DNA of 63,739 bases, filler included, from Craspedostauros australis (GCA_030167865.1; 8 parts of 8 records of this genome joined end to end with filler, not necessarily neighbours in it); one strand, 5' to 3'. Positions 14,942 to 62,010 are shown, counted from the first letter of the whole stretch. Made by a program: numbers and translations. Notes: generated from the sequence alone by a model not told the origin.

Positions 14942-15041
14942 NNNNNNNNNNNNNNNNNNNNNNNNNNNNNNNNNNNNNNNNNNNNTTAATTAATTAANNN
15001 NNNNNNNNNNNNNNNNNNNNNNNNNNNNNNNNNNNNNNNNN
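14942..15041. other. artificial contig spacer
   Basis: 44 N + TTAATTAATTAA (stops in all six frames) + 44 N. Confidence 0.98.
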
Positions 15042-16060
15042 GTAGAGCTGTACTCCGAGGTAGCATCGATGGGTGCTCTGTAGGGCACATCCCTGAAGTC
15101 GATCTGCGTAGGCTCCTTGCTGAGTTGGTCCTCCGCTCCGCTGGTGGTGATTGCTTGCTCACTCTGGTTGATGCTCCCGTCATCATCGTCCATTACCACT
15201 GACTCCTCGTCGTCGCTGACCAGATTGGCTGCGTCCATTGGTTCGGTAGGAGTGATTTCCTGCACTGAATTTGTCAAGCAGTACTTCCTGAATCCATTGT
15301 AACCCGATGACGATCTGATCATGCCGATGTTGGATGACGTGAGTGGTATGGATCGTCGGTGCTTGCGACGGTCCCAAAAGATCTCCATTCTGTTGCCGAG
15401 GGTGGTACATCCGGTTCCCTCAAGATCCTTGCTGCATTGCGCCCAGTGTTGTGGGCAGAGCAGTCGGAATGGAAGGCTGGGCTCATAGATCACCTTGTCG
15501 AGCTCGATGATGTGCCGGTTTCCGCGGTCGTCCTCGATCTTCCATCTCACCTTTCCTTGCAGGTTCACCTTCCGACTCCCAACTCCCTTCACAACCTTGT
15601 CGATCTTTGTAGGCTCTCCGATGAAGTCATCCTTGCTGTTGGTGAATGAAGTGGATGCGCAATTGTCCACCGCCATCTGAAACGAGTCTGAATCGAATCG
15701 AGCGAGAGGCATCGCGAAGGTGTCTTCTGTCTCCGTGTCTGCGGCTGCCCAAAGGTGTCGCATTGTTCTTGTGCGCCATCCGGACTTTCGTCCGATCCTG
15801 GGTGGCCGGATTCTGTTGCCATGCGCGTAGTATCGCCGGCATTGGTGGTGGTTTGGTCGCCATCTGGTGTGTTTGCGTGGGTGTCCTTGGATTAGCGCAA
15901 TGCGCCAAGCTGTCCACGTGACCAGGGCGACCACCACCATGGCCAATGCTGACTCCTCATCTCCGTGCGCGAAGGCGGCAACGCAGATGGCTGTCAGTAA
16001 TGCCATGATGAGTGGCCTGCAGAGGGTGAGCAACTGTGCCCACACCCTCCGGCCGATCAT
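15042..16060 (-). CDS. pol: Pol N-terminal part: hydrophobic leader and aspartic protease
   Basis: Protease motif FQMAVDNCAS...VKGVG...G.VRWKIEDD...VIYEPSLPFRLLCPQHW. Continues into the 17899 contig via the overlap. Confidence 0.85.
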
Positions 16061-17662
16061 TCAGTACTCCTCTTCGGCCACATGTGGCATGGCCACCGTT
16101 GGCTTGTTGGAGGTACCATCTCCTCCTGACTTGTCAGGCTTGCCATCCGAATTGGCCCCTCCCTTGAGGGCCTTGCACTCCGATGGCTTGTGACGGACCC
16201 ATTTGCCGTTGGTTCCGTGGTTGGGGCACCAGTGGACGTCTTTTCCGCTCGGATCCTGCTTGGTCTTGGGCTCTCCGCTGGCTGGAGGTTGGTAGAACCA
16301 TGGGGTGTCCCCAGATCCTCCTTTCTTTCCGTCCTTCTCTTTGCCCTTCTTGCCCTTCTTGCCCTTGCCGTCCTTGCCGTCCTTGCCCTTCTTTCCGTTG
16401 CCGCCCTTGTTGGCCTTCTTCATCTTCTCGAGTTCTGCCGTCAGCGCCACGATGTGTTTCTGGTCCTCTGTTTGGGCCTTCCACGTTCCGCGTTCAACCA
16501 TGGTCTTGTATTTCTTGTCTACCAGATCCATGAGTTCGTCGGCATCGATTGCGATTCCTTCGTTGTGCTGGTCCTCCTTGCTCTCGATGTATCGGCGGAA
16601 TGTCTCATCGCTCACCTGCTTGTAGGCGTCGAAAAGATAGATTAGCAGATCATGGGTGACTTGTCCACGTGCCGTCAATCCGTTGCGTTGCAGTTTCGCA
16701 TACTCGTTGAGTTCGGTGATGTTGTCCGAGAGGTCGCCGATCTTGTTCGACAGGTTGGCCAGGTTGCTTCGCAGCATGCTGATGGTTGCGTTGGTGTTGA
16801 CCAGTGATTTCTCCATCAGGACCTTGAACATCAACAGGCCATCGTGAACCTTCCCTTCGGCTGTGTGCAGGGAGTACTTCTCTGACTCCAGCTGCATGCG
16901 GGACCTTGCGTCTTGCGTGAGGGACTCCTGAATGCACTTTGCGATTTGCATTGCGTTCTGGGCGTGCCTGGTCTGTCGGCTGGAATAGCGTTCGGCGTAT
17001 TCCCGAACCTCTTTGTAGCTGATTGTGCTATGTTCGAGGAACAGGTTTCGCTTTTCGCCGCGGATGTTGATGATGACAGTTTGGAGCCAGTTGAACTCCA
17101 TTGCTCGGGCGTTGAGGAGGTTGGTGAACTTGTGGACGAGGTTCGAGGTCATGTCGAACTCCACTGGGAGTGCCTCGACGGCCTTGTAGTACAGCTTTGC
17201 CACAGATGTCTTGCTGTAGTCGAGCAGCCGATTGTGGATGCGAGCTGGCGTCAAAGCGTACTGGAATGCAGGCTGTGCATCCACTACCTCTTCATCGTCC
17301 TCTTCATCGTCCTCATCGTCGCCCCCACCGTCTCCTCCGAAGTTGTCGAAGAAGGGATCGTCCTCTTCGTACGGGTCGCCCCCGCCTCCGCCATCTCCTC
17401 CGCCGTCCCCGCCGCCGTTGCCTCCTGGGTTGGTGTTGCCCTGTGGAACGTTCTGAGCGGGTGGCTTCAGGTTGCCTTGGTTGGTTGCCATGGCGTTTGG
17501 GTTGTTGTCGCCTGGGTTGGACGGTTGGTTGCTGGCTGCGGCTTGATTGCCCGCAGTGCCTCGGCCTGCAGCTGTGTTGGGTGCGGCGCTCGTGTTGGCA
17601 GCTGTGTTGGCTGCGGTGCTGGATTGTCTCGCTCTTGAGCGAGTTGTTGCTGTGGCGACCAT
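16061..17662 (-). CDS. gag: retrotransposon Gag (533 aa from first ATG)
   Basis: Low-complexity N-terminus, helical capsid-like core, Lys/Gly-rich segment, and C-terminal knuckle WCPNHGTNGKWVRHKPSEC. Directly upstream of and in frame with pol. Confidence 0.85.
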   Translation of the reverse strand: MVATATTRSRARQSSTAANTAANTSAAPNTAAGRGTAGNQAAASNQPSNPGDNNPNAMATNQGNLKPPAQNVPQGNTNPGGNGGGDGGGDGGGGGDPYEEDDPFFDNFGGDGGGDDEDDEEDDEEVVDAQPAFQYALTPARIHNRLLDYSKTSVAKLYYKAVEALPVEFDMTSNLVHKFTNLLNARAMEFNWLQTVIINIRGEKRNLFLEHSTISYKEVREYAERYSSRQTRHAQNAMQIAKCIQESLTQDARSRMQLESEKYSLHTAEGKVHDGLLMFKVLMEKSLVNTNATISMLRSNLANLSNKIGDLSDNITELNEYAKLQRNGLTARGQVTHDLLIYLFDAYKQVSDETFRRYIESKEDQHNEGIAIDADELMDLVDKKYKTMVERGTWKAQTEDQKHIVALTAELEKMKKANKGGNGKKGKDGKDGKGKKGKKGKEKDGKKGGSGDTPWFYQPPASGEPKTKQDPSGKDVHWCPNHGTNGKWVRHKPSECKALKGGANSDGKPDKSGGDGTSNKPTVAMPHVAEEEY

Positions 17663-17798
17663 GATTCCGTCCAGTTGGTTTGACCAGTCGTTGAATAGGT
17701 ACACTTGATTGTTTGTGGGGCCTGGAGACGAGATTGTGGATTGCAATGTGTTGTCGTGTCCTGGACCTGCAGTAGAATAGCGCTACGAGAGGTGACTT

Positions 17799-17898
17799 NN
17801 NNNNNNNNNNNNNNNNNNNNNNNNNNNNNNNNNNNNNNNNNNTTAATTAATTAANNNNNNNNNNNNNNNNNNNNNNNNNNNNNNNNNNNNNNNNNNNN
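17799..17898. other. artificial contig spacer
   Basis: N44-TTAATTAATTAA-N44. Confidence 0.98.
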
Positions 17899-21054: not shown

Positions 21055-21154
21055 NNNNNNNNNNNNNNNNNNNNNNNNNNNNNNNNNNNNNNNNNNNNTT
21101 AATTAATTAANNNNNNNNNNNNNNNNNNNNNNNNNNNNNNNNNNNNNNNNNNNN
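21055..21154. other. artificial contig spacer
   Basis: N44-TTAATTAATTAA-N44. Confidence 0.98.
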
Positions 21155-23959
21155 CATGATCTGGAACATGAACTTGTTTGAGAGGATCTTCTTCTTGTCA
21201 TTCAGTACCGGAAGCGATAGGATCTGCTCATCCGTGTGGCGTCTGAGGTATGATGTCAGCCATAACATATCCCGAATCACGTGCAGCACATATCCGCGCT
21301 TGGGGTACCTTCCAAGCAAGCGGACAGTCTCTCTGTTCATTTTCATGCAGAGATCTTGCCTGTCCTGCTTGGCGTATGCTACTGCCATACAGGAATATAC
21401 CGACAGCTTCTGTTCGGTTGTGTCTGCCCTCTCCAATACCTCTCGACCCAGATCGTATCCCAGCTGGTAGTGGCCCAGTGTGAGCTCCGCATCAGCTCGG
21501 AGCTGATGTAGACGAAGCGAAAGATCATAATGGTTCTCCCACGGGGCGCGGAGCTTGCGGAATGCATTGTAGGCCAGCTGCAAGTACATGGCTGCTGGTG
21601 CCAGCGCTGCCATCTTCAATGCCTGCTCTCCGACTTCCAAGTTGAGCTGAAGGGAGAATGGATGATCCTTGGTTGGTATGCAGTTGAGATGGTCGGCGGC
21701 AACGAAGAGCAGGCTCGCATCGATGGTTGGAAGTGACTGGCCACCGCCTTCGTTGCCGCCGCTGCTGACTGTAGATGGAAGTGGAGATGTTGTTGTTGCT
21801 GTCGTTGCAAGCGGAAGTTGGTTCTGTTCACAGTACATCCTCCAGATGTACAGCCCGATCCTGTGTTTCAATTTGCTTCTCATTTCGCCGAATGGGACGA
21901 GTCCCAATGCAGCCTGCTGGATGCGATCATGAGCGAAACGGAATGTCTTGCTCCCGACTGGGTTGGAGAGGAGACCTTCCAGCACCGCTTCTTCCAGATG
22001 ATCCGACAGCAGCATTGAATCTACTCCAGATGTTGAGAGCGTCTCTGCTCCTCCGCCACCATCGTGTTTGACGGTGTTGGTACCTGCAAATACGAACCCA
22101 TCCATCGGAGGCTTCTGAATGCTCTCTTCTCTCAGCACAAACTCCAACAGATCAACATCAAAGCTGAAGCGGATATACGACGCGATGATCAGGGCGGTAC
22201 GAAGTTCGGCGGGCTGGTTGTTGAGTTTCATCGCCATCAGCTGGACCACGTTGCCTGCAGATGCGAACGCTTGTTTGCGGCGCTGTTGATCTCCATATTG
22301 GGACATGCTCAGATCGTTGCTGCCAAGGGATGCATCATCAGGGATGTGCCACTCCCATTGGAATGAGATGCGGCTGTACACGATGGCGTTGCACCGCTCA
22401 AGCTCCTCCAGGAGCTGCAGCATGAAGAAGACGTTGCCTTCCGTCTTGGTGTAGATCTTGGATGTCAACGGTTGCAGCTCCTCCACTTCGCGGTCGAGAA
22501 GCTGCGACAGCCACAGTCCGACATCATCCTGCGTCATGTTGGCGAGATGGATGTCGGTCCATATCGCGCTTGCGTCTTGTGCTGGTGGTGGTTTGGGCCA
22601 TAATTGGGGATGCTTGGGAGACGCATGGTCTTCTGCGTGATGTTGAGAGCTATGCAGCTTGTCGAACATGCTGGCGAGTGGAGATGTCGGGGCTAACTCC
22701 AAGGGACAATCGGAGTGCGGGTTTGCTTCCTGACGGATGGCACCGATCAAGAGGAAGTTGCTGAGCTGTTTGTCTTGCAGCAACGTGGCGAGAAGATCCA
22801 AGGCCACTTGGGAGCTCCACTGCATGTCATCAAGGAACATGACGACCGGTCGCTTCCTCGTCGCGATGGCCTTGATGAATGATCCGAACATGTACTGCAG
22901 CTTGTTCCATGCCTTGTCGCTGGAGGTCACCATTTGTTCCACACTGTCGCTCTCGATGGTGCAGTTTGTGCGTTGGTGTCCACCTTGGATTTGATCTCTT
23001 GTCGATGATACTGCAGATGATGGTGGCGCCGGCGATGCTCCTCCACCGGCCTTGCTTCCACTGTTTCCCTTGCTTCCCTTGCTTCCCTTGTTTGCCTTGT
23101 CCCTCTTCTTCTCACGCGGCCCATCATGCAAAGACTCCGTCTCCAGCAAGGATGCGATGGATGGCACGATGGTTGCCATCATCTGCACTTCGCCACCGAT
23201 AGTGTCGCGAATGATGTCGGTCATGCGTTTGCGTTCATCTTTGGGTTCGCTGATGACCTGTTGACAAAAGTCGCTCAAGGTTTGAACGATGGCCGAGAAT
23301 GGGTCCTTGGATCCTGTCGTTTCATCGTTCTTTCCTTGGATGAAGTATGCGCGCTGTGTTGGCTGCGAATGATTGGCGTTGGTGTTGGTGTTGGTGTTCG
23401 TGTCGACTGGTTGATCGTCAGGATTGTTGCCCTGCTCACCAGCAGCACCAAGGGACGCTGCAAGCTGCTTGACGAGTCTGGATTTGCCAGTTCCGCTGAG
23501 TCCCCAAAGGAACGCGGCAGGAAGTGTTGGCCCGGTGGATCGAATGCCAGCTTTGGCATCGCGAGGTTGGCTCGCAGCTGGTGAGGCGTCATGAAGGATA
23601 TGGTGACGATCGGCGTCATCGGCCGCCTTGTGGCTGGTGTTGCGCTTGCGATTGCGGTGTGCTGGCTTTCCTCCTTTCCGATCGCTCCCGTTGTGAGATG
23701 GTCGTACGATGTCTTCGAAGGCGGCCTTCAATTGGTCGAGCTCCTTTGAACGACCGAAGAACTGGGTGTTGCGGAAATCTAGCTTGCAGTGGATCTGCGC
23801 ATCCAGCTCTGTCTCGTTGTATCCATCATCGTAAAAGTCGTTGCCGGACGTGAACGTGACCGCAGTCTGCAACGTTGATGATAGCCTTGTGTTGTTGCTT
23901 GAGATGGACTTCGTCATGGCGAGCAAGTTCGATTTGTGGATTAGCCCCGGCCTTGGCAT
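21155..23959 (-). CDS. STAND-class (AAA_16 / COG3899-like) ATPase with helical TPR-like region, copy 1 (3'-truncated)
   Basis: FFGRSKEL, Walker A GLSGTGKS, Walker B VMFLDDMQW, TEGNVFF, FRFAHDRIQQAA. Confidence 0.88.
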
Positions 23960-25873: not shown

Positions 25874-28800
25874 TTATTCGTGGTCCGTTAGAACTGATAT
25901 TTCGTCATCCTCGAGATTCTCATCCATGTTGCTCATCTTTCCGTTGTTGCTTGCGTCGCCAGCGTTGTCATCATTTTCAATACTCCTATTCCCCCGATGA
26001 CTCTTGTCACCATGGTGTGACGAGGTTGTTTGCCTCAACGTTGGTTGGTCCACGCTCCCAACCAAGATACTCTGCGCATCGGTACCAAAGCGAAACTGAA
26101 GACGGCTATTGGTTGTCCGTATATATGATGGAAGAATCACCTTCCCCACCGGTGGCTCATGCGTCTTCATAAACCTACCAACCTGATCTTCATCGACGTA
26201 TTGTAGACGTCGTTGTCGAAGATCATCCACCTTTGCCATAGCTCCCCATCGATGGTAGTATGTGCACGCCTGAGTCATGTACTTCGTCGCATCGGAGTCC
26301 AACTTCGTTCTGATGAGATACTCTGCAAACCGTTCACAGGCAAGCCCAGCCTCGTGAAGGTGGCTGACTTCATTGGAAACGAAGATCGCATCCTGGTATG
26401 CTGCCTTGACAGCCATGATGCTGTGACGGTCGCCGTGCTTCGATGTCGCTGCGATGTATTCGGCCCGGATGATGAGATGTCTACTCTTGTGACACTCGCC
26501 TCTGATGGCGGATGAAAGACTCTTCTTGTATGTTTGCCTCAGTAATCGTTTGTATTTGGGACGCTTGGTTTCCTTGTAGAGAGAGGCGGCCATCAATGTG
26601 ATGTAGAGCATGCGCGAACTTTGGTAGTTGTATCCTGGGTCAGCTGTAAAATGCTTGTCCAGACGTTTGAATAGGACCTTCATCGCATCAAACCTCTGGA
26701 AGTAGGTCGCCAATAGTAGTCGGATCCAATATCCAGCTCGGAGCAACGGCAAGGTGTCATGTGTCCTCATGATACCCTCACCAAAGCGGGCCATTTCATT
26801 CCAATCTACTCCTTCTCTCCCAAGAAGAATTGCTGGCATCTTGGCATGCTCCTTGAACCAATCAATACCTGATGATACCTTGAATAGTGCCATTTGCTCA
26901 AACATAGTTTCGTATGAATGTTGCATCTCTCCCAAGGGATGACCCTCCCACGCAGCGACTAGATTGCTGGCTAGCCAAGCGAAGAAGCCAGTCTCAAAGT
27001 CGCCCTGCTGCATACATACAGAGAAGCCTCGATGCATTTTCTCAAGGATCGAAGCTGCTGGTTCATGCCACCCAGATATGAAGAGGCCGTCGGTCATGTC
27101 AATCCACGCCTTGATGTAGGGATCACGATGTTGGTGGATGACTGAATTGGCCAGTTCGGCCAGACGCACGGCCATGGCTTGATTTCCTTGTGCAGCTTGC
27201 ACCATCCCGAAGCTAGCGAAGCCCAAAGCCGCTTCCGCACAGAGGCCATGCCGAATGGATAACCGCACAATCTTCATCACTGACATCATCCACTCCACCG
27301 CATCTCCTCCAGTATATGCACGAGCCATGATCTGGAACATGAACTTGTTTGAGAGGATCTTCTTCTTGTCATTCAGTACCGGAAGCGATAGGATCTGCTC
27401 ATCCGTGTGGCGTCTGAGGTATGATGTCAGCCATAACATATCCCGAATCACGTGCAGCACATATCCGCGCTTGGGGTACCTTCCAAGCAAGCGGACAGTC
27501 TCTCTGTTCATTTTCATGCAGAGATCTTGCCTGTCCTGCTTGGCGTATGCTACTGCCATACAGGAATATACCGACAGCTTCTGTTCGGTTGTGTCTGCCC
27601 TCTCCAATACCTCTCGACCCAGATCGTATCCCAGCTGGTAGTGGCCCAGTGTGAGCTCCGCATCAGCTCGGAGCTGATGTAGACGAAGCGAAAGATCATA
27701 ATGGTTCTCCCACGGGGCGCGGAGCTTGCGGAATGCATTGTAGGCCAGCTGCAAGTACATGGCTGCTGGTGCCAGCGCTGCCATCTTCAATGCCTGCTCT
27801 CCGACTTCCAAGTTGAGCTGAAGGGAGAATGGATGATCCTTGGTTGGTATGCAGTTGAGATGGTCGGCGGCAACGAAGAGCAGGCTCGCATCGATGGTTG
27901 GAAGTGACTGGCCACCGCCTTCGTTGCCGCCGCTGCTGACTGTAGATGGAAGTGGAGATGTTGTTGTTGCTGTCGTTGCAAGCGGAAGTTGGTTCTGTTC
28001 ACAGTACATCCTCCAGATGTACAGCCCGATCCTGTGTTTCAATTTGCTTCTCATTTCGCCGAATGGGACGAGTCCCAATGCAGCCTGCTGGATGCGATCA
28101 TGAGCGAAACGGAATGTCTTGCTCCCGACTGGGTTGGAGAGGAGACCTTCCAGCACCGCTTCTTCCAGATGATCCGACAGCAGCATTGAATCTACTCCAG
28201 ATGTTGAGAGCGTCTCTGCTCCTCCGCCACCATCGTGTTTGACGGTGTTGGTACCTGCAAATACGAACCCATCCATCGGAGGCTTCTGAATGCTCTCTTC
28301 TCTCAGCACAAACTCCAACAGATCAACATCAAAGCTGAAGCGGATATACGACGCGATGATCAGGGCGGTACGAAGTTCGGCGGGCTGGTTGTTGAGTTTC
28401 ATCGCCATCAGCTGGACCACGTTGCCTGCAGATGCGAACGCTTGTTTGCGGCGCTGTTGATCTCCATATTGGGACATGCTCAGATCGTTGCTGCCAAGGG
28501 ATGCATCATCAGGGATGTGCCACTCCCATTGGAATGAGATGCGGCTGTACACGATGGCGTTGCACCGCTCAAGCTCCTCCAGGAGCTGCAGCATGAAGAA
28601 GACGTTGCCTTCCGTCTTGGTGTAGATCTTGGATGTCAACGGTTGCAGCTCCTCCACTTCGCGGTCGAGAAGCTGCGACAGCCACAGTCCGACATCATCC
28701 TGCGTCATGTTGGCGAGATGGATGTCGGTCCATATCGCGCTTGCGTCTTGTGCTGGTGGTGGTTTGGGCCATAATTGGGGATGCTTGGGAGACGCATGGT

Positions 28801-29692
28801 CTTCTGCGTGATGTTGAGAGCTATGCAGCTTGTCGAACATGCTGGCGAGTGGAGATGTCGGGGCTAACTCCAAGGGACAATCGGAGTGCGGGTTTGCTTC
28901 CTGACGGATGGCACCGATCAAGAGGAAGTTGCTGAGCTGTTTGTCTTGCAGCAACGTGGCGAGAAGATCCAAGGCCACTTGGGAGCTCCACTGCATGTCA
29001 TCAAGGAACATGACGACCGGTCGCTTCCTCGTCGCGATGGCCTTGATGAATGATCCGAACATGTACTGCAGCTTGTTCCATGCCTTGTCGCTGGAGGTCA
29101 CCATTTGTTCCACACTGTCGCTCTCGATGGTGCAGTTTGTGCGTTGGTGTCCACCTTGGATTTGATCTCTTGTCGATGATACTGCAGATGATGGTGGCGC
29201 CGGCGATGCTCCTCCACCGGCCTTGCTTCCACTGTTTCCCTTGCTTCCCTTGCTTCCCTTGTTTGCCTTGTCCCTCTTCTTCTCACGCGGCCCATCATGC
29301 AAAGACTCCGTCTCCAGCAAGGATGCGATGGATGGCACGATGGTTGCCATCATCTGCACTTCGCCACCGATAGTGTCGCGAATGATGTCGGTCATGCGTT
29401 TGCGTTCATCTTTGGGTTCGCTGATGACCTGTTGACAAAAGTCGCTCAAGGTTTGAACGATGGCCGAGAATGGGTCCTTGGATCCTGTCGTTTCATCGTT
29501 CTTTCCTTGGATGAAGTATGCGCGCTGTGTTGGCTGCGAATGATTGGCGTTGGTGTTGGTGTTGGTGTTCGTGTCGACTGGTTGATCGTCAGGATTGTTG
29601 CCCTGCTCACCAGCAGCACCAAGGGACGCTGCAAGCTGCTTGACGAGTCTGGATTTGCCAGTTCCGCTGAGTCCCCAAAGGAACGCGGCAGG
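25874..29692 (-). CDS. STAND-class ATPase, copy 2 (5'-truncated; holds the C-terminus). Composite protein is 1418 aa
   Basis: 27326-29692 appears identical to 21155-23521 (offset 6171). C-terminal motifs HEAGLACERFAEY and YYHRWGAMAKVDDL are typical of this ATPase family. Confidence 0.88.
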   Translation of the reverse strand, partial: PAAFLWGLSGTGKSRLVKQLAASLGAAGEQGNNPDDQPVDTNTNTNTNANHSQPTQRAYFIQGKNDETTGSKDPFSAIVQTLSDFCQQVISEPKDERKRMTDIIRDTIGGEVQMMATIVPSIASLLETESLHDGPREKKRDKANKGSKGSKGNSGSKAGGGASPAPPSSAVSSTRDQIQGGHQRTNCTIESDSVEQMVTSSDKAWNKLQYMFGSFIKAIATRKRPVVMFLDDMQWSSQVALDLLATLLQDKQLSNFLLIGAIRQEANPHSDCPLELAPTSPLASMFDKLHSSQHHAEDHASPKHPQLWPKPPPAQDASAIWTDIHLANMTQDDVGLWLSQLLDREVEELQPLTSKIYTKTEGNVFFMLQLLEELERCNAIVYSRISFQWEWHIPDDASLGSNDLSMSQYGDQQRRKQAFASAGNVVQLMAMKLNNQPAELRTALIIASYIRFSFDVDLLEFVLREESIQKPPMDGFVFAGTNTVKHDGGGGAETLSTSGVDSMLLSDHLEEAVLEGLLSNPVGSKTFRFAHDRIQQAALGLVPFGEMRSKLKHRIGLYIWRMYCEQNQLPLATTATTTSPLPSTVSSGGNEGGGQSLPTIDASLLFVAADHLNCIPTKDHPFSLQLNLEVGEQALKMAALAPAAMYLQLAYNAFRKLRAPWENHYDLSLRLHQLRADAELTLGHYQLGYDLGREVLERADTTEQKLSVYSCMAVAYAKQDRQDLCMKMNRETVRLLGRYPKRGYVLHVIRDMLWLTSYLRRHTDEQILSLPVLNDKKKILSNKFMFQIMARAYTGGDAVEWMMSVMKIVRLSIRHGLCAEAALGFASFGMVQAAQGNQAMAVRLAELANSVIHQHRDPYIKAWIDMTDGLFISGWHEPAASILEKMHRGFSVCMQQGDFETGFFAWLASNLVAAWEGHPLGEMQHSYETMFEQMALFKVSSGIDWFKEHAKMPAILLGREGVDWNEMARFGEGIMRTHDTLPLLRAGYWIRLLLATYFQRFDAMKVLFKRLDKHFTADPGYNYQSSRMLYITLMAASLYKETKRPKYKRLLRQTYKKSLSSAIRGECHKSRHLIIRAEYIAATSKHGDRHSIMAVKAAYQDAIFVSNEVSHLHEAGLACERFAEYLIRTKLDSDATKYMTQACTYYHRWGAMAKVDDLRQRRLQYVDEDQVGRFMKTHEPPVGKVILPSYIRTTNSRLQFRFGTDAQSILVGSVDQPTLRQTTSSHHGDKSHRGNRSIENDDNAGDASNNGKMSNMDENLEDDEISVLTDHE

Positions 29693-29792
29693 NNNNNNNN
29701 NNNNNNNNNNNNNNNNNNNNNNNNNNNNNNNNNNNNTTAATTAATTAANNNNNNNNNNNNNNNNNNNNNNNNNNNNNNNNNNNNNNNNNNNN
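29693..29792. other. artificial contig spacer
   Basis: N44-TTAATTAATTAA-N44. Confidence 0.98.
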
Positions 29793-31764: not shown

Positions 31765-31864
31765 NNNNNNNNNNNNNNNNNNNNNNNNNNNNNNNNNNNN
31801 NNNNNNNNTTAATTAATTAANNNNNNNNNNNNNNNNNNNNNNNNNNNNNNNNNNNNNNNNNNNN
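31765..31864. other. artificial contig spacer
   Basis: N44-TTAATTAATTAA-N44. Confidence 0.98.
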
Positions 31865-32547
31865 GCAAGCGATTGTTCGAAGGAGTGCGCATCCAACCAA
31901 ACGAGAGACCAACAGAGAAGGCACAAAACCAACGGTCACCACATGATGTCGGAGTAACTCGAAAACCACGACTAAGAGTTGTTGGGTGAGGTCGAAGGTC
32001 ACGACGACAACAAATAACGAGCCTGATGTTCTCCATTGTCTGTCCGACTGTACGTGATTCTCCGAACATGAAGAAATCGCATTGTTTCCAAACACGTTTG
32101 CTGCGTCACTCGTGTCGAACAAGATTTGTTTGTCGAGTGTCCTCGCAATCCGCTCACATTTTTGGCAGATCGTCACAAGATTCACAATCGCATCGCCAAC
32201 ACCCACAACAACAATCCCTTGGTGACGATGCCCAAAGCTACGACACCGTTCATGCTCACAACTCGTGCAAACACCGACAAAAATTCAATCGTTTCCCAAG
32301 TCCCAACCTTGGCCAAACTCGAGAGTCAGCGTCCAAGATGCATGTCATCCACCAAGACAACTGTGTTGCTCCATCACGACGGAAATGGTACCGACTACAA
32401 CAACAACAACAGCAACAACAACAACAGCCATAACGGCGACGACAGTTGGGGACCTGATGGTGCGTCGACACTTTCACCGCGACGCACAAGCCAAGATTGT
32501 CCTCATAAAATCAATCAGTTGACCAATCTGCCCACTGCTACAAACGC

Positions 32548-32593
<46 letters not shown>

Positions 32594-32637
32594 TACCGCA
32601 AACGACAACCTCATCAGACCAGCCAACGCCGTCCACC

Positions 32638-33387
32638 ATGAAGATCTCCATTCTCTCCTTCCTCTTCGTCGCCCTCTCAAACGTCGCCACGACGAACGGG
32701 CAGCTACCAAGCAGTTCGCCATCGTCCGTTCCAACCAGATCGATCGCGCCGTCTGCGACCCCATCGACCTTGCCATCAGCTGTTCCCACCAGGTCGATCG
32801 CGCCGTCTGCAACCCCATCGACGTTGCCATCGGCGGTTCCCACCAGATCAGAGGCACCGTCTTCGACGCCGTCGTCAGTACCAACGAGCATGCCGACAGC
32901 AGCCCCAACCAGCGTGCCAACAGGGTCGCCGTCATCAACACCAACGGATATGCCAACAGGATCAGCAGCACCGACCGGCATGCCAACCGCACGTCCAACT
33001 GATCTCCCAACCCTGTCACCAACAGCAGTGCCAACAGGGTTGCCGACATCAGCACCAACATATATGCCAACAATCACAGCCTCCCCAACCATGAAGAGCG
33101 TCAAGGCCACCAAGTCGCCAAAGACAACCAGCGATACCACAAGTGGCAGCACCAAGGCACCGAAGGCCACCAAGTCCCCAAAGACAACCAGCGATACTGG
33201 CGGAAGCGCGAGCACCAAGGCGCCAAAGTCCACGAAGGCACCGAAGAATGGCAGCACTACGACAACAACGACTACTACCACTGCAGCGAGCAGCACCAAG
33301 GCTCCAAAGACCTCAGAGGTCACGAAAAAATCGAAGACGGCTTCGGCGGATGGTTTCAAGGAAACCAAGAGCAAGAAGGTACGTTGA
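32638..33387 (+). CDS. secreted Pro/Ser/Thr-rich mucin-like protein with KxxK (silaffin-like) C-terminal region
   Basis: Signal peptide MKISILSFLFVALSNVA, PS/PT tetrapeptide repeats, then KATKSPK / KAPKATKSPK / KAPKSTKAPK. A possible intron at 33379-33591 (GTACGT..CACAG) would end the protein KKAST* at 33603. Confidence 0.8.
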   Translation: MKISILSFLFVALSNVATTNGQLPSSSPSSVPTRSIAPSATPSTLPSAVPTRSIAPSATPSTLPSAVPTRSEAPSSTPSSVPTSMPTAAPTSVPTGSPSSTPTDMPTGSAAPTGMPTARPTDLPTLSPTAVPTGLPTSAPTYMPTITASPTMKSVKATKSPKTTSDTTSGSTKAPKATKSPKTTSDTGGSASTKAPKSTKAPKNGSTTTTTTTTTAASSTKAPKTSEVTKKSKTASADGFKETKSKKVR

Positions 33388-34338
33388 AAACGCTGCTCCT
33401 GCCATGGCCCAAGCATCCATTCGTCTATTCATGCAGTCCGTCGTTGCCAGCGAGAAAGCGGCACACATGATTGGCAAACCAGGAGATGGACCGAAACCGC
33501 TACAATCATCAGCACACGCGTCCGTCACTTTGATCTCATCTCACCTTTCGTTTCTCTCCGTGCCGTTGCAATACACCGTCCACAATCACAGGCATCCACG
33601 TAAGCACAATCTGGATACTATCCGACTGTCCTCCAACGCATCCATCCTCCAATGAATGGCTTGGTGGATGATCAACCAAGCGGAACAGATCCGGCGATTC
33701 GGCATTGAGACAGTGGCGGCGTTCCTTGTCAATATGCTCCGCCGCTCTGCGCACAATGACATTCTCATGGAACGGTGCTCTCGAACAGAGATCCAGCAGA
33801 AGCATGGATCAACAAGCCCCTCGTTGAGGAGGCCCTCGCACTCCCATCATGACCTTCGTGGGTTCATGGCGAGATGGAGATGTGTCACACAACTCGAATT
33901 CATATGTACGAGTATGTGAGAGTTCGTGGAGCATCTCCCGCTGTGGCAAATGGACTGCGCGGGATCGTCGACATCTCGATGTATCAAGCGCATCCATGGC
34001 ACACGTACCAACACGACGGCTTGCCCCTTCGTGTACTCGTATGAAAGTCCAAACCCATCACATCCAATCTCGTTTATATCATATAATAGTACACATTGTA
34101 AAGTAAATGTTTATACGTCCAGCCATCGTCTACACTTACGACTATCAGCACGATAGGAGAGCGCGAGCAGAGAAGAGTGCTTGCATCTCTGTTGTCCGAA
34201 CTCAAGAACACGTTCGCCTCCAGTACTCGTCGTCGTACCGTGGACCGTCCACTCGCACGAGTCGAGTGCGGCCGCCGACATCGTTGTGCTCGTCCGTCCT
34301 CCAATGTACTTGAAACGGTGTCACGATAACACCAGTCG

Positions 34339-45585: not shown

Positions 45586-45685
45586 NNNNNNNNNNNNNNN
45601 NNNNNNNNNNNNNNNNNNNNNNNNNNNNNTTAATTAATTAANNNNNNNNNNNNNNNNNNNNNNNNNNNNNNNNNNNNNNNNNNNN
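45586..45685. other. artificial contig spacer
   Basis: N44-TTAATTAATTAA-N44. Confidence 0.98.
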
Positions 45686-47290
45686 CGGACAACAGAGATG
45701 CAAGCACTCTTCTCTGCTCGCGCTCTCCTATCGTGCTGATAGTCGTAAGTGTAGACGATGGCTGGACGTATAAACATTTACTTTACAATGTGTACTATTA
45801 TATGATATAAACGAGATTGGATGTGATGGGTTTGGACTTTCATACGAGTACACGAAGGGGCAAGCCGTCGTGTTGGTACGTGTGCCATGGATGCGCTTGA
45901 TACATCGAGATGTCGACGATCCCGCGCAGTCCATTTGCCACAGCGGGAGATGCTCCACGAACTCTCACATACTCGTACATATGAATTCGAGTTGTGTGAC
46001 ACATCTCCATCTCGCCATGAACCCACGAAGGTCATGATGGGAGTGCGAGGGCCTCCTCAACGAGGGGCTTGTTGATCCATGCTTCTGCTGGATCTCTGTT
46101 CGAGAGCACCGTTCCATGAGAATGTCATTGTGCGCAGAGCGGCGGAGCATATTGACAAGGAACGCCGCCACTGTCTCAATGCCGAATCGCCGGATCTGTT
46201 CCGCTTGGTTGATCATCCACCAAGCCATTCATTGGAGGATGGATGCGTTGGAGGACAGTCGGATAGTATCCAGATTGTGCTTACGTGGATGCCTGTGATT
46301 GTGGACGGTGTATTGCAACGGCACGGAGAGAAACGAAAGGTGAGATGAGATCAAAGTGACGGACGCGTGTGCTGATGATTGTAGCGGTTTCGGTCCATCT
46401 CCTGGTTTGCCAATCATGTGTGCCGCTTTCTCGCTGGCAACGACGGACTGCATGAATAGACGAATGGATGCTTGGGCCATGGCAGGAGCAGCGTTTTCAA
46501 CGTACCTTCTTGCTCTTGGTTTCCTTGAAACCATCCGCCGAAGCCGTCTTCGATTTTTTCGTGACCTCTGAGGTCTTTGGAGCCTTGGTGCTGCTCGCTG
46601 CAGTGGTAGTAGTCGTTGTTGTCGTAGTGCTGCCATTCTTCGGTGCCTTCGTGGACTTTGGCGCCTTGGTGCTCGCGCTTCCGCCAGTATCGCTGGTTGT
46701 CTTTGGGGACTTGGTGGCCTTCGGTGCCTTGGTGCTGCCACTTGTGGTATCGCTGGTTGTCTTTGGCGACTTGGTGGCCTTGACGCTCTTCATGGTTGGG
46801 GAGGCTGTGATTGTTGGCATATATGTTGGTGCTGATGTCGGCAACCCTGTTGGCACTGCTGTTGGTGACAGGGTTGGGAGATCAGTTGGACGTGCGGTTG
46901 GCATGCCGGTCGGTGCTGCTGATCCTGTTGGCATATCCGTTGGTGTTGATGACGGCGACCCTGTTGGCACGCTGGTTGGGGCTGCTGTCGGCATGCTCGT
47001 TGGTACTGACGACGGCGTCGAAGACGGTGCCTCTGATCTGGTGGGAACCGCCGATGGCAACGTCGATGGGGTTGCAGACGGCGCGATCGACCTGGTGGGA
47101 ACAGCTGATGGCAAGGTCGATGGGGTCGCAGACGGCGCGATCGATCTGGTTGGAACGGACGATGGCGAACTGCTTGGTAGCTGCCCGTTCGTCGTGGCGA
47201 CGTTTGAGAGGGCGACGAAGAGGAAGGAGAGAATGGAGATCTTCATGGTGGACGGCGTTGGCTGGTCTGATGAGGTTGTCGTTTGCGGTA

Positions 47291-47336
<46 letters not shown>

Positions 47337-48019
47337 GCGTTTGTAGCAGTGGGCAGATTGGTCAACTGATTGATTTTATGAGGACAATCTTGGCTTGTGC
47401 GTCGCGGTGAAAGTGTCGACGCACCATCAGGTCCCCAACTGTCGTCGCCGTTATGGCTGTTGTTGTTGTTGCTGTTGTTGTTGTTGTAGTCGGTACCATT
47501 TCCGTCGTGATGGAGCAACACAGTTGTCTTGGTGGATGACATGCATCTTGGACGCTGACTCTCGAGTTTGGCCAAGGTTGGGACTTGGGAAACGATTGAA
47601 TTTTTGTCGGTGTTTGCACGAGTTGTGAGCATGAACGGTGTCGTAGCTTTGGGCATCGTCACCAAGGGATTGTTGTTGTGGGTGTTGGCGATGCGATTGT
47701 GAATCTTGTGACGATCTGCCAAAAATGTGAGCGGATTGCGAGGACACTCGACAAACAAATCTTGTTCGACACGAGTGACGCAGCAAACGTGTTTGGAAAC
47801 AATGCGATTTCTTCATGTTCGGAGAATCACGTACAGTCGGACAGACAATGGAGAACATCAGGCTCGTTATTTGTTGTCGTCGTGACCTTCGACCTCACCC
47901 AACAACTCTTAGTCGTGGTTTTCGAGTTACTCCGACATCATGTGGTGACCGTTGGTTTTGTGCCTTCTCTGTTGGTCTCTCGTTTGGTTGGATGCGCACT
48001 CCTTCGAACAATCGCTTGC
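45686..48019 (-). repeat. reverse-complement copy of 31865-34198 (2334 bp contig overlap; includes the mucin/KxxK ORF at 46497-47246)
   Basis: ORF translations are identical. Each copy starts exactly at a contig start, and coordinates sum to 79884 at both ends. Confidence 0.95.
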
Positions 48020-55479: not shown

Positions 55480-58400
55480 ATGCATTCTCACTTCTACCAA
55501 CGAATCCTTGCTGCTCTGGTGCTTGCGGTGCTTGTCGTTACGGCAGTGGCATCCCCGGCGCCAAAGTTGACGGTGAGTACGAGCAAGATGGCAACTGTCA
55601 CTGTTGTCTCGACGTGTGGGGGCTCCTTCTTTGCTGGCATTCCCGCCTTGCCGCATCCGCATCCACAGACATACGCGTACGTGCATCCAATTCAATGACC
55701 TCATCCTCAACTCAACTTTGTATCTGTACCTTGTATTACGCAATACATCACAACGCATCACGTCACGTCACTTCACGTCATGTCCTTCATCACACAACCA
55801 ACAACTGAATCGAACTCAATTCAGACGCATGACGCTGCCTCGGGCGAACACAGTACCCTACAGGAGCCATGCCTCGTCTCGGCACGTACCATTGGCGCTG
55901 CCGATGGAAATGATGCAACTGACTACTCGTGCATGCTCCAAGGCTCCGATGAGGAAGCGCATGGGCCTGTGCATTTGACCATCGAAGGGCTGACGCCGGA
56001 ATGGGCCAAGAACAACCGTGCATGGTCAACTTCCTCTTCCAAATCCACGTTGTTTCTGGAGAATGTCATCATCGATGTCACCGACTTCTCCTTGAAGCTG
56101 CCGGACTTGAAGACAGTCGATGACATGAACATCGAGCATCATCAATCAAGCGAACAAAGCGATGGCCGTGGACATGGACGTGGTCGTTCTCTGACCACTC
56201 CTGATGTCTTTGGTTCTGGCAACAAGAAGTTCCTCTTCATCCAGGTCGTCTTCCAAACCAACTACACAGTTCCCAAGTCCTTCATCAAAGACGAGATCTT
56301 CGGCGCCCAGCCCAACTTCACCGACCAGTTCGCGGCCATGTCTTTTGACAAGCTGAGGCTCTCCACCATGCCGACGAATGAGACAGATGATGGGATTCTG
56401 ACAATTGAGTTCCCCCCTGACGTTGATCCCACCACTCTCGAGGCAACAACAGTTGATAATCTCATCTCGCAATATCTGAAGCAGGAGGTCAAGATCTATG
56501 ATGACTTTGATTTCTTCTTGATCTTGGTCCCGTTCGGGTTGGGTAGCTTCCAAGGAACTGAATGGACCGGTAAGTGCCGACAAGGACCACACAGCTCGTA
56601 TCTTCTATGTCAACATTACGCACTGGTATCGTGATGAGCTCTACCTGTGCTCACACTCCTATCTAACCCATCTCACTCCATCGTGGAATACCATCTTTCT
56701 TCCGTGCGAATCAAACTCTCCCGATTCTCAACGCGTGCACCGATGTAACCGGCACACCACTGATTCACAGCGTACGCCTATTTCGACCAAAAGATCAGCG
56801 TGTACAACGGTATCAGAAACTATCCAGACACGCACTGGGCAGCCAGCCCACACTTCATCATCCACGAACTCGGTCACAGCTTCGGGCTTGGTCATTCCAA
56901 TCGGAACGGGGTAGAGTATGCAGATCCCAGGTAAGCGCAGCCAACGCGTCAGCAGAGAGAAAGAAAGAGAGAGGTTGAAGACGATCTGTGACATTCTGCA
57001 TCAATCATTGTAGACGGATGGACGACCGGACACAAGAACGCACACAATCAAACTCCGGAGAGAGCACATTGGACGCGTCTGCCATGTTCTGGTCCTCATC
57101 ACATGATAGGGACCCTGTTTTCTCAGTCGAAGCCCATCTCACCCTCCTCTTCGTGTATCCTCTTCCTCGTTGTTGACGTTTTCCGGTCAATGGATTCCGA
57201 CCCCCAACACCGACTATTATTCCGCAGCGGCATGATGGGCGGAACAGTTTTTGGTCCATTTTTTAATGAATCGCTGAGCGATAAGGTGGGGTACAATGGT
57301 AAGTGCTACGACGCCGTCGCCTTGTGGAGAGCAAGGACCTAGATGGTTCCGTTCCAGGAGGAGTCGTGTCACCTCATCACATACGATGCGATGCGGCACT
57401 CTACGTACGCTGTCTCATCAATCATTCCCTTCTCCATCGTTTCGTTCTTTACGTCCACGCCAAATCATTTCACGCTCTCATGCTCATGCTACAAACCTAC
57501 CCCTTCAATATCATTACTCATGCGCCTGCTCCTCCACCACACATAGGTGCCAAGAGCTGGGTGATGGGGTGGTACTCCGATCAGACCACATTGCTCACCG
57601 GAGGTCAAGACATCGACTTCGAGGGAAGGCTCTGCGGAGTGGTCGATTATGACCCCGCTGACACCAGTTTCGACGTCATCATCCAAATTGACGATCCTGA
57701 GAGTGAATTGAACTACTACATCGCCTTCAACAGAGCCATTGGCTTCAACGCCGATTCTCCACTGGGCAGGGATCAGGTCCTCGTGACAAGGGCACAAGAC
57801 CACGGCACTACACAGACGCGATTCTCTCATCTGGAGGCCATCCTGAACATGACACAATCATCGTACAGAATTGACGCCCAGTCGTCTTTGCTGGATGGAA
57901 TCGTTGTTTCGGTATCCAACATCGATGATGGCTCGACCACACCCATGTGTGCGACAGTGAGCGTGAAATTCGATCTCAGTCGATCACCAACCGCGGCACC
58001 ATCCGGTTCTGCGGCACCATCAATGTCATCACTCCCATCGAATGTTCCGAGTATAACCCCCTCGTCTGCCCCAACCGGAATTTGCGGCACGTGGGATTCG
58101 ACAGCGATCGCCGCCTCTCGCTTCGATGAGCGCATTGAGTCATTCAGATTCGATGTTCGCATACTGGACCGCATCGAACTCACCGCCATCAAGATCGTCG
58201 TGGCTCCTGAATTCACCAACATGCCATACACGATCTTCTTCCGTCCAAGCACCTGGGATGCCGATGGCGACTGGACTCAGATTGCATCAGGAAACAACGG
58301 AGAAACGGACTCGTCTGGCTTCACCCCTTCCCTCATATTTGATCAGTCCGTGGTGGTGTCCGCGGATGATGACATTGTATCCTTCCGCATTGACATGGCC

Positions 58401-59348
58401 GACAGGTTGAGGACTATTACCTCATCATCTCCGCGTGTGACCCCAGAGTTCTTTGTCAACTGCCCAGACTGCCCATTCGAGGTATTCAGCGGACAAGGTA
58501 GCCTCGAAGTTGGAAACAACCCACCCAATTTCAGCGATGAGTTCCCCTTCTTCTTCGGCATCCTCGAATTCTGTCCGGATTCGAGCACCGAGATGCCAAC
58601 TGGATCTGCTTCCCCCACTACGACGACACTGCCATCAATTCAACCATCCGCAAGCCCCACTCAGGCACCAACAGACACCTGCCGCGACGCAAAAACAGCA
58701 GGTCTCCCAAGATCATTCTTTGCCGACTCGGTCGCGTCAGTGCGACACGACATTCAGATTCTGGACAGTGTCGACATCACAGGCATGAGGCTTGTCCTGC
58801 CATCGATGGGGAACCAAAATTTCACAATCTTCTATCGCCCAAGTACGCGGGATGCACCCGGGAATTGGACAGAACTTGCATCGGGAATGATCGAGGCCAG
58901 AGGTGATGATGAATTCACAGATGTGATTCCATTCGATCAACCTTTGGCTGTATCCGAAAGCGACGACGTGATCTCCATCCGCATCGATACACGAACGAAT
59001 GTGGGGGATGAATTCTCGAGGAACATCATTCCCATCCCTCCAGACTGGCTTGATTGCGGCAATTGCCCATTCACTATCTTTACGGGAACGGCGAGCCGTG
59101 TTGTCGGTGATAATCCTCCTCCTCTCTACCCTGGCTTCTATGAGTACTTCATGGGTTCACTGGAATTCTGCAACGGTAACTCGAAGATGCCGTCATCCAC
59201 GCCGTCGTCCTTCCCTTCCTCCCAACCATCTTACATGCGCAGCACGAAGGGGGCGAAATCATACAAATCGGACAAGTCATCAAAGGAGAGCAAGACGAAG
59301 TCTCCCAAGTCACCCAAATCAAGCAAGTTGTCGAAGAGCCCCAAATGA
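55480..59348 (+). CDS. secreted peptidase M11 (gametolysin-like) zinc metalloprotease, 956 aa; exons 55480-55572, 55825-56569, 56771-56930, 57228-57298, 57547-59348
   Basis: Four GT-AG introns splice in frame. Signal peptide, prodomain ending RGRSL, HELGHSFGLGHS zinc motif, EYADPSGMMG Met-turn, YNGAKSWVMGWY, FNRAIGFN. Then PS linkers, two repeated domains and a KxxK tail. Confidence 0.9.
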
Positions 59349-61910: not shown

Positions 61911-62010
61911 NNNNNNNNNNNNNNNNNNNNNNNNNNNNNNNNNNNNNNNNNNNNTTAATTAATTAANNNNNNNNNNNNNNNNNNNNNNNNNNNNNNNNNN
62001 NNNNNNNNNN
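61911..62010. other. artificial contig spacer
   Basis: N44-TTAATTAATTAA-N44. Confidence 0.98.

Follow-up and report, generated by a model that had tools for sequence, protein, structure and literature searches.

The locus studied here raises the question of how a diatom retrotransposon makes its Pol enzymes when an in-frame UGA closes gag directly ahead of pol. It lies in the window, i.e., the whole stretch of DNA that was analysed (63,739 nt, filler included, from Craspedostauros australis, GCA_030167865.1), which consists of separate contigs joined by seven artificial spacers of the form N44-TTAATTAATTAA-N44; contigs on either side of a spacer are not genomic neighbours. The first-pass annotation of the window had proposed that this element sets its Gag:Pol ratio by readthrough or stop-start reinitiation, with an RNA stem-loop behind the stop.

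The element and its gag-pol junction

The junction is held by contig G000:C4262 (2757 nt). The following features were located in it and around it:

15042..17798, minus strand: contig G000:C4262 (100% match, bounded by N spacers), an internal fragment of a Ty1/copia-type element with gag, the junction, and the start of pol
16064..17662, minus strand: gag ORF, 533 aa counted from the first ATG (17662, the presumed start), with an acidic C-terminus ending EEEY
16175..16231, minus strand: Cys/His knuckle-like Gag motif W-C-x2-H ... W-x2-H-x4-C, with invariant W, C, H, W, H, and C columns in the Gag alignment
16061..16063, minus strand: in-frame UGA at the gag/pol boundary
16055..16060, minus strand: 6-nt spacer ATG ATC, conserved across subfamilies A-D in length, and not in sequence or ATG
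16014..16054, minus strand: predicted RNA stem-loop with a 4-bp basal helix, a 3-nt 3' bulge, an 8-bp upper helix, and a variable top
15977..16033, minus strand: first hydrophobic, membrane-like segment, codons 10-28 past the stop (Kyte-Doolittle 19-aa mean 2.15)
15890..15946, minus strand: second hydrophobic segment, codons 39-57 (mean 2.03), followed by an Arg/Lys-rich stretch
15665..15667, minus strand: putative catalytic Asp of the protease (D-N-C-A-S), codon 132 past the stop
15044..16060, minus strand: 5' part of pol, 339 codons, ended by the contig edge
17899..21054, plus strand: adjoining contig C4263, in which the same pol continues with gag_pre-integrase, SH3, and RVT_2 (Pfam)
14942-15041, 17799-17898, 21055-21154, 29693-29792, 31765-31864, 45586-45685, 61911-62010: artificial spacers

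On the minus strand, a single frame runs from gag through TGA and ATG ATC into 339 open codons, up to the contig end. The junction reads GAG GAG TAC TGA ATG ATC (TGA 16063-16061, ATG 16060-16058, common frame), just as the first-pass annotation had described it. The gag ORF gave no match in Pfam; nine full-length homologs were found at 31-45% identity, eight of which share the same aligned acidic C-terminus, and its Cys/His knuckle-like motif is a putative zinc binder.

Contig C4263 overlaps the pol fragment (15042-15493) over 452 nt at 100% identity. Domain order over the two overlapping contigs was Pol_BBD, gag_pre-integrs, SH3_retrovirus, and RVT_2, the Pol_BBD match (PF22936, near the protease region) being weak at E 0.0026, below the family cut-off; integrase core and RNase H gave no Pfam match within these two contigs. 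Because C4263 overlaps the pol fragment and carries gag_pre-integrase, SH3, and RVT_2, the element is, judged by its domains, of Ty1/copia type, with a copia-type RT and protease-integrase-RT order. The claim of otherwise uninterrupted ORFs could be followed in part: pol in the window is cut at 339 codons by the contig end, and the copy C6071 (95% identical) has an open pol of 1362 codons. The window's contigs stop short of any LTR; a purine tract followed by TG was seen 3' of the pol stop in C6071 and most relatives, and direct-repeat matches, some of them ambiguous, were found in 9 of 17 complete pols. Named organisms among the 120 pol matches listed were Fragilaria crotonensis and Epithemia clementina, and none of these 120 was a named CoDi reference. 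The best Atlas cluster for Gag was assigned to Bacillariophyta, the phylum being known for 5 members. Taken by themselves, these matches make a diatom host likely, though only indirectly.

The UGA and the frame beyond it among relatives

From the genome itself, 21 contigs were examined, 18 of which show the junction; allelic copies or assembly redundancy may account for some of them. Besides a distant family E (about 30% Gag identity), four subfamilies were distinguished: A (window), B (73%), and C and D (about 50%). TGA was found at the junction in 14/14 contigs of subfamilies A-D and in 17/18 overall, the sole exception being C111 (family E), which has CGA there and is truncated shortly past the junction. 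A common frameshift in the A-rich part of gag was seen in all three contigs of subfamily D (C4204 (L127, about 1440-1480), C4203, and C413), i.e., one defective copy or a sequencing error met three times.

A Gag profile search yielded 1646 clusters at 50% identity (E up to 1e-30), and all 150 listed out of these were Gag-only in length (327-604 aa). In a metagenome scan, 180 stretches were confirmed, and the analysis covered the 77 loci listed among them; four with gag running off the contig end and two ending too soon past a premature stop were dropped, leaving 71. For three loci with an extra upstream stop, the next in-frame stop, at the homologous acidic end, was used. None of 170 pattern matches was confirmed in a scan of IMG/VR. 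Since the query had been built from Gag-only proteins, retrieval was biased away from fused gag-pol forms, which are hence under-sampled; those encountered were P0175, P0185, and C1936 (L131) from the own genome. The latter, a distant relative, carries gag and pol in one 2000-codon ORF (Gag profile E 2e-11).

TGA ended gag in 71/71 usable metagenome loci (28-37% Gag identity). Together with seven own-genome loci, which were picked by their junction with C111 excluded, the count was 78/78, or 60/60 families at 80% Gag clustering. As a control, pol itself, complete and open in 17 loci (1294-1463 codons), ended with TAA in seven, TAG in five, and TGA in five. Protease was in the gag frame in 47 of the 50 loci with a downstream protease match, three of these 47 having one further stop, and the remaining three loci were frameshifted. 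The first-pass annotation had made its proposal depend on the stop being conserved in other copies rather than a private nonsense mutation, and other copies do keep TGA.

The context in subfamily A is C-UGA-A (TAC-TGA-A), with neither GAA at −1 nor C at +4. Over the families, C stood at +4 in 36/60 (background 0.21) and of the 41 families with Glu at −1, 36 use GAA (0.54 nearby), figures whose independence is overstated by binomial and Fisher statistics as the families share kinship; the commonest context was GAA-TGA-CT.

In the 45 families with at least 150 codons, the 1560 codons from the UGA to the first Met held no in-frame stop (about 67 expected), and the two other frames of the same stretch held 135. 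Over codons 1-70 past the stop, pS exceeded pN in 11 of the 12 computable pairs (of 13); upstream of the first Met, seven pooled pairs gave pS 0.30 and pN 0.17, a constraint weaker than that in the protease. Codon +1 was spread over 26 codons and was ATG in 2/60 families. The first Met lay at a median of 19 codons past the stop (22 by chance), and within five codons of it in 4/45 families (14% expected by chance).

A strongly hydrophobic span of 19 residues was found within the first 90-100 codons past the stop in 43/51 families, with one family each in the two other frames; in a comparison with control regions, it was present in 41/48 post-stop regions, 0/48 Gag, and 0/33 Pol. Median net charge (42 families) was −1 before and +4 after the segment, and in 12/41 families the span ends ahead of the first Met. 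One segment only is present in 34/49 families, subfamilies A and B have two flanking a short acidic loop, and the two fused gag-pol proteins inspected as well as family E have none. Origin of the segment as a by-product of T-rich DNA was considered and rejected on the frame counts above and on the enrichment of T at codon position 2. Two side observations were made in this region. A motif Y-[VIT]-P-[KR], often YVPKSKR, occurs in 21/60 families within the first 120 codons past the UGA, mostly just past the hydrophobic segment, and is a possible cleavage or sorting signal. The family E loci L128, L129, and L040 have AAC-TGA-CAT, reach the protease after only about 30 codons, and lack a hydrophobic segment; a long-range helix may begin at nt 7 (z −3.8).

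RNA structure downstream of the UGA

The hairpin at 16054-16014, 6 nt past the stop, had a minimum free energy of −23.1 kcal/mol (z −2.39), and 4/200 shuffles were equally stable, which is modest support for the hairpin by itself, the folded stretch having been chosen by eye. In an alignment of A, A', B, C, and D, RNAalifold gave 12 pairs with 59/60 cells paired, compared with 40-55% in slid controls. Covariation of the stem, which the first-pass annotation had named as a check, was found across the four subfamilies: four pairs of the 12-bp core are altered on both sides with pairing kept, and two more on one side only. All four double changes distinguish A/B from C/D and could thus stem from a single branch, and at least four doubly changed pairs were reached in 114/500 shuffles; taken alone, the covariation would be good but not overwhelming evidence for the stem. 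Of the stem as originally drawn, the hairpin at these positions with its basal 4 bp and 3-nt 3' bulge was retained, and the register with a UG bulge lower down was given up, as covariation prefers a contiguous 8-bp upper helix (GGAGGGUG/CACCCUCU). The spacer reads ATGATM in A, ATCACA in B, AACTCA in C, and ATGACA in D, with six bases before the stem in each.

Across the wider clade, local 50-nt folding peaked 6-9 nt past the stop, with z below −2 in 34% of 58 at best. This understates structure because several stems are long-range, and an arm test allowing distant partners was used in its place. A 12-nt arm from nt 7 paired downstream with z below −2 in 50% of 52 families, arms begun ahead of nt 4, or at nt 13 and later, reaching 0-12%, and the first confident helix began at nt 7-8 in 19/52 families versus 9/135 control windows. 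In about half of the families a helix begins 6-8 nt past the stop; about half have no clear stem, with several AT-rich ones showing none. Three further forms were seen among relatives: a compact 11-bp hairpin; a longer, window-like hairpin with a 4-bp base and a 2-3-nt 3' bulge; and, in a second lineage, a stem that closes with a 3' arm 87-128 nt away downstream and differs in a compensatory manner among L091, L096, L099, L105, L107, L116, and L123. The window's own stem motif recurs in one metagenome locus (L119). No Rfam family, SECIS included, was matched in 20 loci. An apparent trade-off between C at +4 and a strong local stem (6/36 vs 10/24, Fisher p 0.04) was dropped, since the families share ancestry and that test overlooked long-range stems in +4 C lineages.

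Proposed readthrough and competing routes to Pol

Judged by these comparisons, programmed, structure-assisted readthrough of the gag UGA is most likely at work throughout the clade. Most ribosomes would stop at the UGA and release Gag, and a minority would, by analogy with known cases, decode it with a near-cognate tRNA (Trp, Cys, or Arg), continuing in frame via the hydrophobic/basic linker into protease, integrase, and RT to give Gag-Pol at a low ratio. The helix 6-7 nt past the stop would sit at the ribosome's mRNA entry and stimulate readthrough, as alphavirus, furovirus, and SEPN1 precedent suggests. In the window's subfamily, the hairpin would probably be the main signal because the local context is poor (C-UGA-A); most relatives carry the leaky GAA-UGA-C as well. 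Readthrough would account for the strict UGA, the same frame, the constraint from codon +1, the leaky context, and the position of the helix.

UGA readthrough is known from viruses and apparently has not been spelled out for diatom copia elements. In the open literature searched, no UGA readthrough, stem, or hydrophobic linker was found described for diatom elements; subscription papers lay outside this search, among them Gao et al. 2003, which reportedly deals with gag-pol recoding. The first-pass remark that no characterisation of such a junction was known for diatom CoDi elements agrees with this, with the supplement of Maumus 2009 possibly bearing on it (PMC2806351). According to the available text of that paper, CoDi elements, likewise diatom Ty1/copia, show at most one stop or frameshift between gag and pol, with ORF1 upstream of the polyprotein ORF; unlike here, stop identity, RNA structure, mechanism, and a hydrophobic linker are absent from its main text, and its supplement may list families with a stop. 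The word 'diatom' does not occur in the accessible part of a 2026 review of animal-virus readthrough (PMC13517186), and nothing on this junction was found in the portions available of PMC6875170, PMC7017206, and PMC2774666.

Tca2 (pCal), a Ty1/copia element of Candida albicans, had been invoked as a precedent, and its available description (PMC2194720) bears this out as regards a gag-UGA-pol arrangement in a single frame with a predicted 3' RNA structure. As regards function it does not: 300 nt around the Tca2 junction gave no readthrough in yeast reporters, and weak promoter activity. The structure predicted for Tca2 is a pseudoknot, whereas the present case has a hairpin, draws on covariation and codon statistics from 60 families, and includes a membrane-like segment past the stop. 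Tj1, Tcry1, and Tosmo1-3 of Schizosaccharomyces also have an in-frame TGA between gag and pol, with a conserved GAA-TGA-CT, the commonest context among the relatives here; they are, however, fungal Ty3/gypsy elements with no 3' stem described in the available text (PMC10085805), and the window's subfamily, with TAC-TGA-A, is without that context.

In alphaviruses, readthrough of a UGA is raised as much as tenfold by a 3' stem that follows after 7-9 nt and can span about 140 nt, and in SEPN1 the stem lies 6 nt from its UGA (PMC3159437, as available). UGA, a short spacer, and a stem with compensatory changes are shared with the alphavirus, furovirus, and tobravirus signals, and some relatives here have a stem closing 87-128 nt downstream together with UGA-CGG. 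Those are RNA viruses in which stimulation was measured and the spacer is 7-9 nt; here the spacer is 6-7 nt and stimulation is presumed from precedent. As in type II, alphavirus-like signals, a conserved UGA with an open downstream frame and a 3' stem are present; the UGA-CUA or UGA-CGG context is absent from the window (UGA-AUG), CGG occurring in 7 and CTA in 2 of the 60 families. Murine leukemia virus, too, has a stop between gag and protease-pol and a 3' structure, and makes about 5% Gag-Pol (PMC8310308 and PMC3159437, in the parts available), but with UAG, an 8-nt spacer, and an H-type pseudoknot; this type III combination was not found here, where the consensus fold is a hairpin and the stop UGA in all 60 families.

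Several points count against readthrough. Besides the families with no clear stem, the possible single-branch origin of the double changes, the kinship of the families, and the biased retrieval, they are the failure of the comparable Tca2 junction in yeast reporters (PMC2194720, available text), a 6-nt spacer shorter than the 7-9 nt of most viral cases (PMC3159437, likewise), and a single membrane segment with a basic C-flank, which is more easily reconciled with a free Pol N-terminus than with a fusion. The RNA run compared with the element covered only a 37-nt low-complexity stretch and speaks neither way.

The last of these points is why a separate start of Pol stays a rival, since one segment with a basic C-flank gives no obvious topology for a Gag-Pol fusion. 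Pol might be expressed as a protein of its own, through an internal promoter, through internal ribosome entry, or from a non-AUG codon right behind the stop, with the hairpin serving that start or RNA packaging and the hydrophobic segment acting as an N-terminal anchor. The weak promoter activity in the Tca2 junction (PMC2194720, as far as available) and the position of the segment near the front of pol, with its charge change from −1 to +4, are in favour; UGA in 60/60 families and the bias to GAA and +4 C are left unexplained, while codon +1 varies over 26 codons, the first Met lies about where chance would put it, and the span ends before that Met in 12/41 families. We consider this route unlikely.

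That splicing or RNA editing takes the stop out of some transcripts was weighed for Tca2 by its authors (PMC2194720, available text), and a conserved hairpin could guide an editor. Donor-like motifs were present in the last 120 nt of gag in 3/60 families, no excess over other windows (1-12 of 41-59), and splicing would make an open, constrained frame from the first post-stop codon needless; the explanation is quite improbable. Diatoms have many selenoproteins, and the UGA might encode selenocysteine, with the hairpin as a Sec redefinition element that ties transposition to selenium. Strict UGA and a 6-nt spacer recall SEPN1 (PMC3159437, in its available part), but beside the lack of an Rfam SECIS in 20 loci, a SECIS-like pattern was found in 1/17 regions past the pol stop (some of only 71-500 nt), as in control windows inside pol, the site has no Cys or redox motif, and fused relatives have no Cys there; although a divergent or more distal SECIS would escape these searches, selenocysteine is very improbable.

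Stop-start reinitiation, the other half of the first-pass proposal, is hardly credible: the adjoining ATG occurs in subfamilies A and D, but subfamily B (80% DNA identity, same stem) has ATC and no Met for 99 codons, the first being codon 100, C has AAC, and the 2/60 and 4/45 counts above run the same way. The readthrough half is favoured by the kept TGA and the covarying stem. A private nonsense mutation, an assembly error, or a host in which UGA is a sense codon can be dismissed for practical purposes, for all that C111 has CGA at the junction, as C111 is itself truncated, TGA stands everywhere else, and TGA is a working stop, since it also ends pol, ahead of the polypurine tract, in C6071 and C4204.

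With readthrough as the preferred reading, the UGA may tentatively be seen as doing more than set the Gag:Pol ratio, namely as a switch by which a membrane anchor is added. UGA, hairpin, and hydrophobic/basic linker would have been gained together by a large clade of diatom copia elements, so that only the readthrough product, Gag-anchor-Pol, is membrane-tethered and nucleates or localises particle assembly, with fused relatives lacking both stop and anchor; the odds are, in our estimate, somewhat against it. To our knowledge, a membrane segment placed between Gag and protease is without precedent in copia elements, and none was found in the literature searched. In a Gag tree (quick mode, two rows under half filled), the two fused proteins lay on a long branch, and the tree says nothing reliable on a single origin of stop and anchor.

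If readthrough holds, a very large diatom retrotransposon family (1646 Gag clusters) makes its enzymes by UGA readthrough, and copia elements would probably have in it their largest natural collection of such signals, ranging over short hairpins, 100-nt stems, and leaky contexts without a stem. The family would also open stop-codon readthrough in stramenopiles to a first study, with tests possible in a transformable diatom, and bear on the standing problem of Tca2. Annotation can easily mistake elements of this kind for broken copies or for two separate genes, and the hydrophobic segment, being confined to one frame, suggests that the particle cycle includes a membrane step.

Elsewhere in the window, a 681-codon ORF (57303-59348, plus strand) gave no Pfam match and no convincing Atlas match. 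Stretches 31865-34198 and 45686-48019 (2334 nt) are 100% identical and inverted at the starts of two contigs, which reflects redundant assembly or a recent duplication. Likewise, 21155-23521 and 27326-29692 (2367 nt, 100% identical) lie at both ends of one contig, both copies falling within AAA_16 (NTPase) genes, as a tandem duplication or a collapsed repeat.
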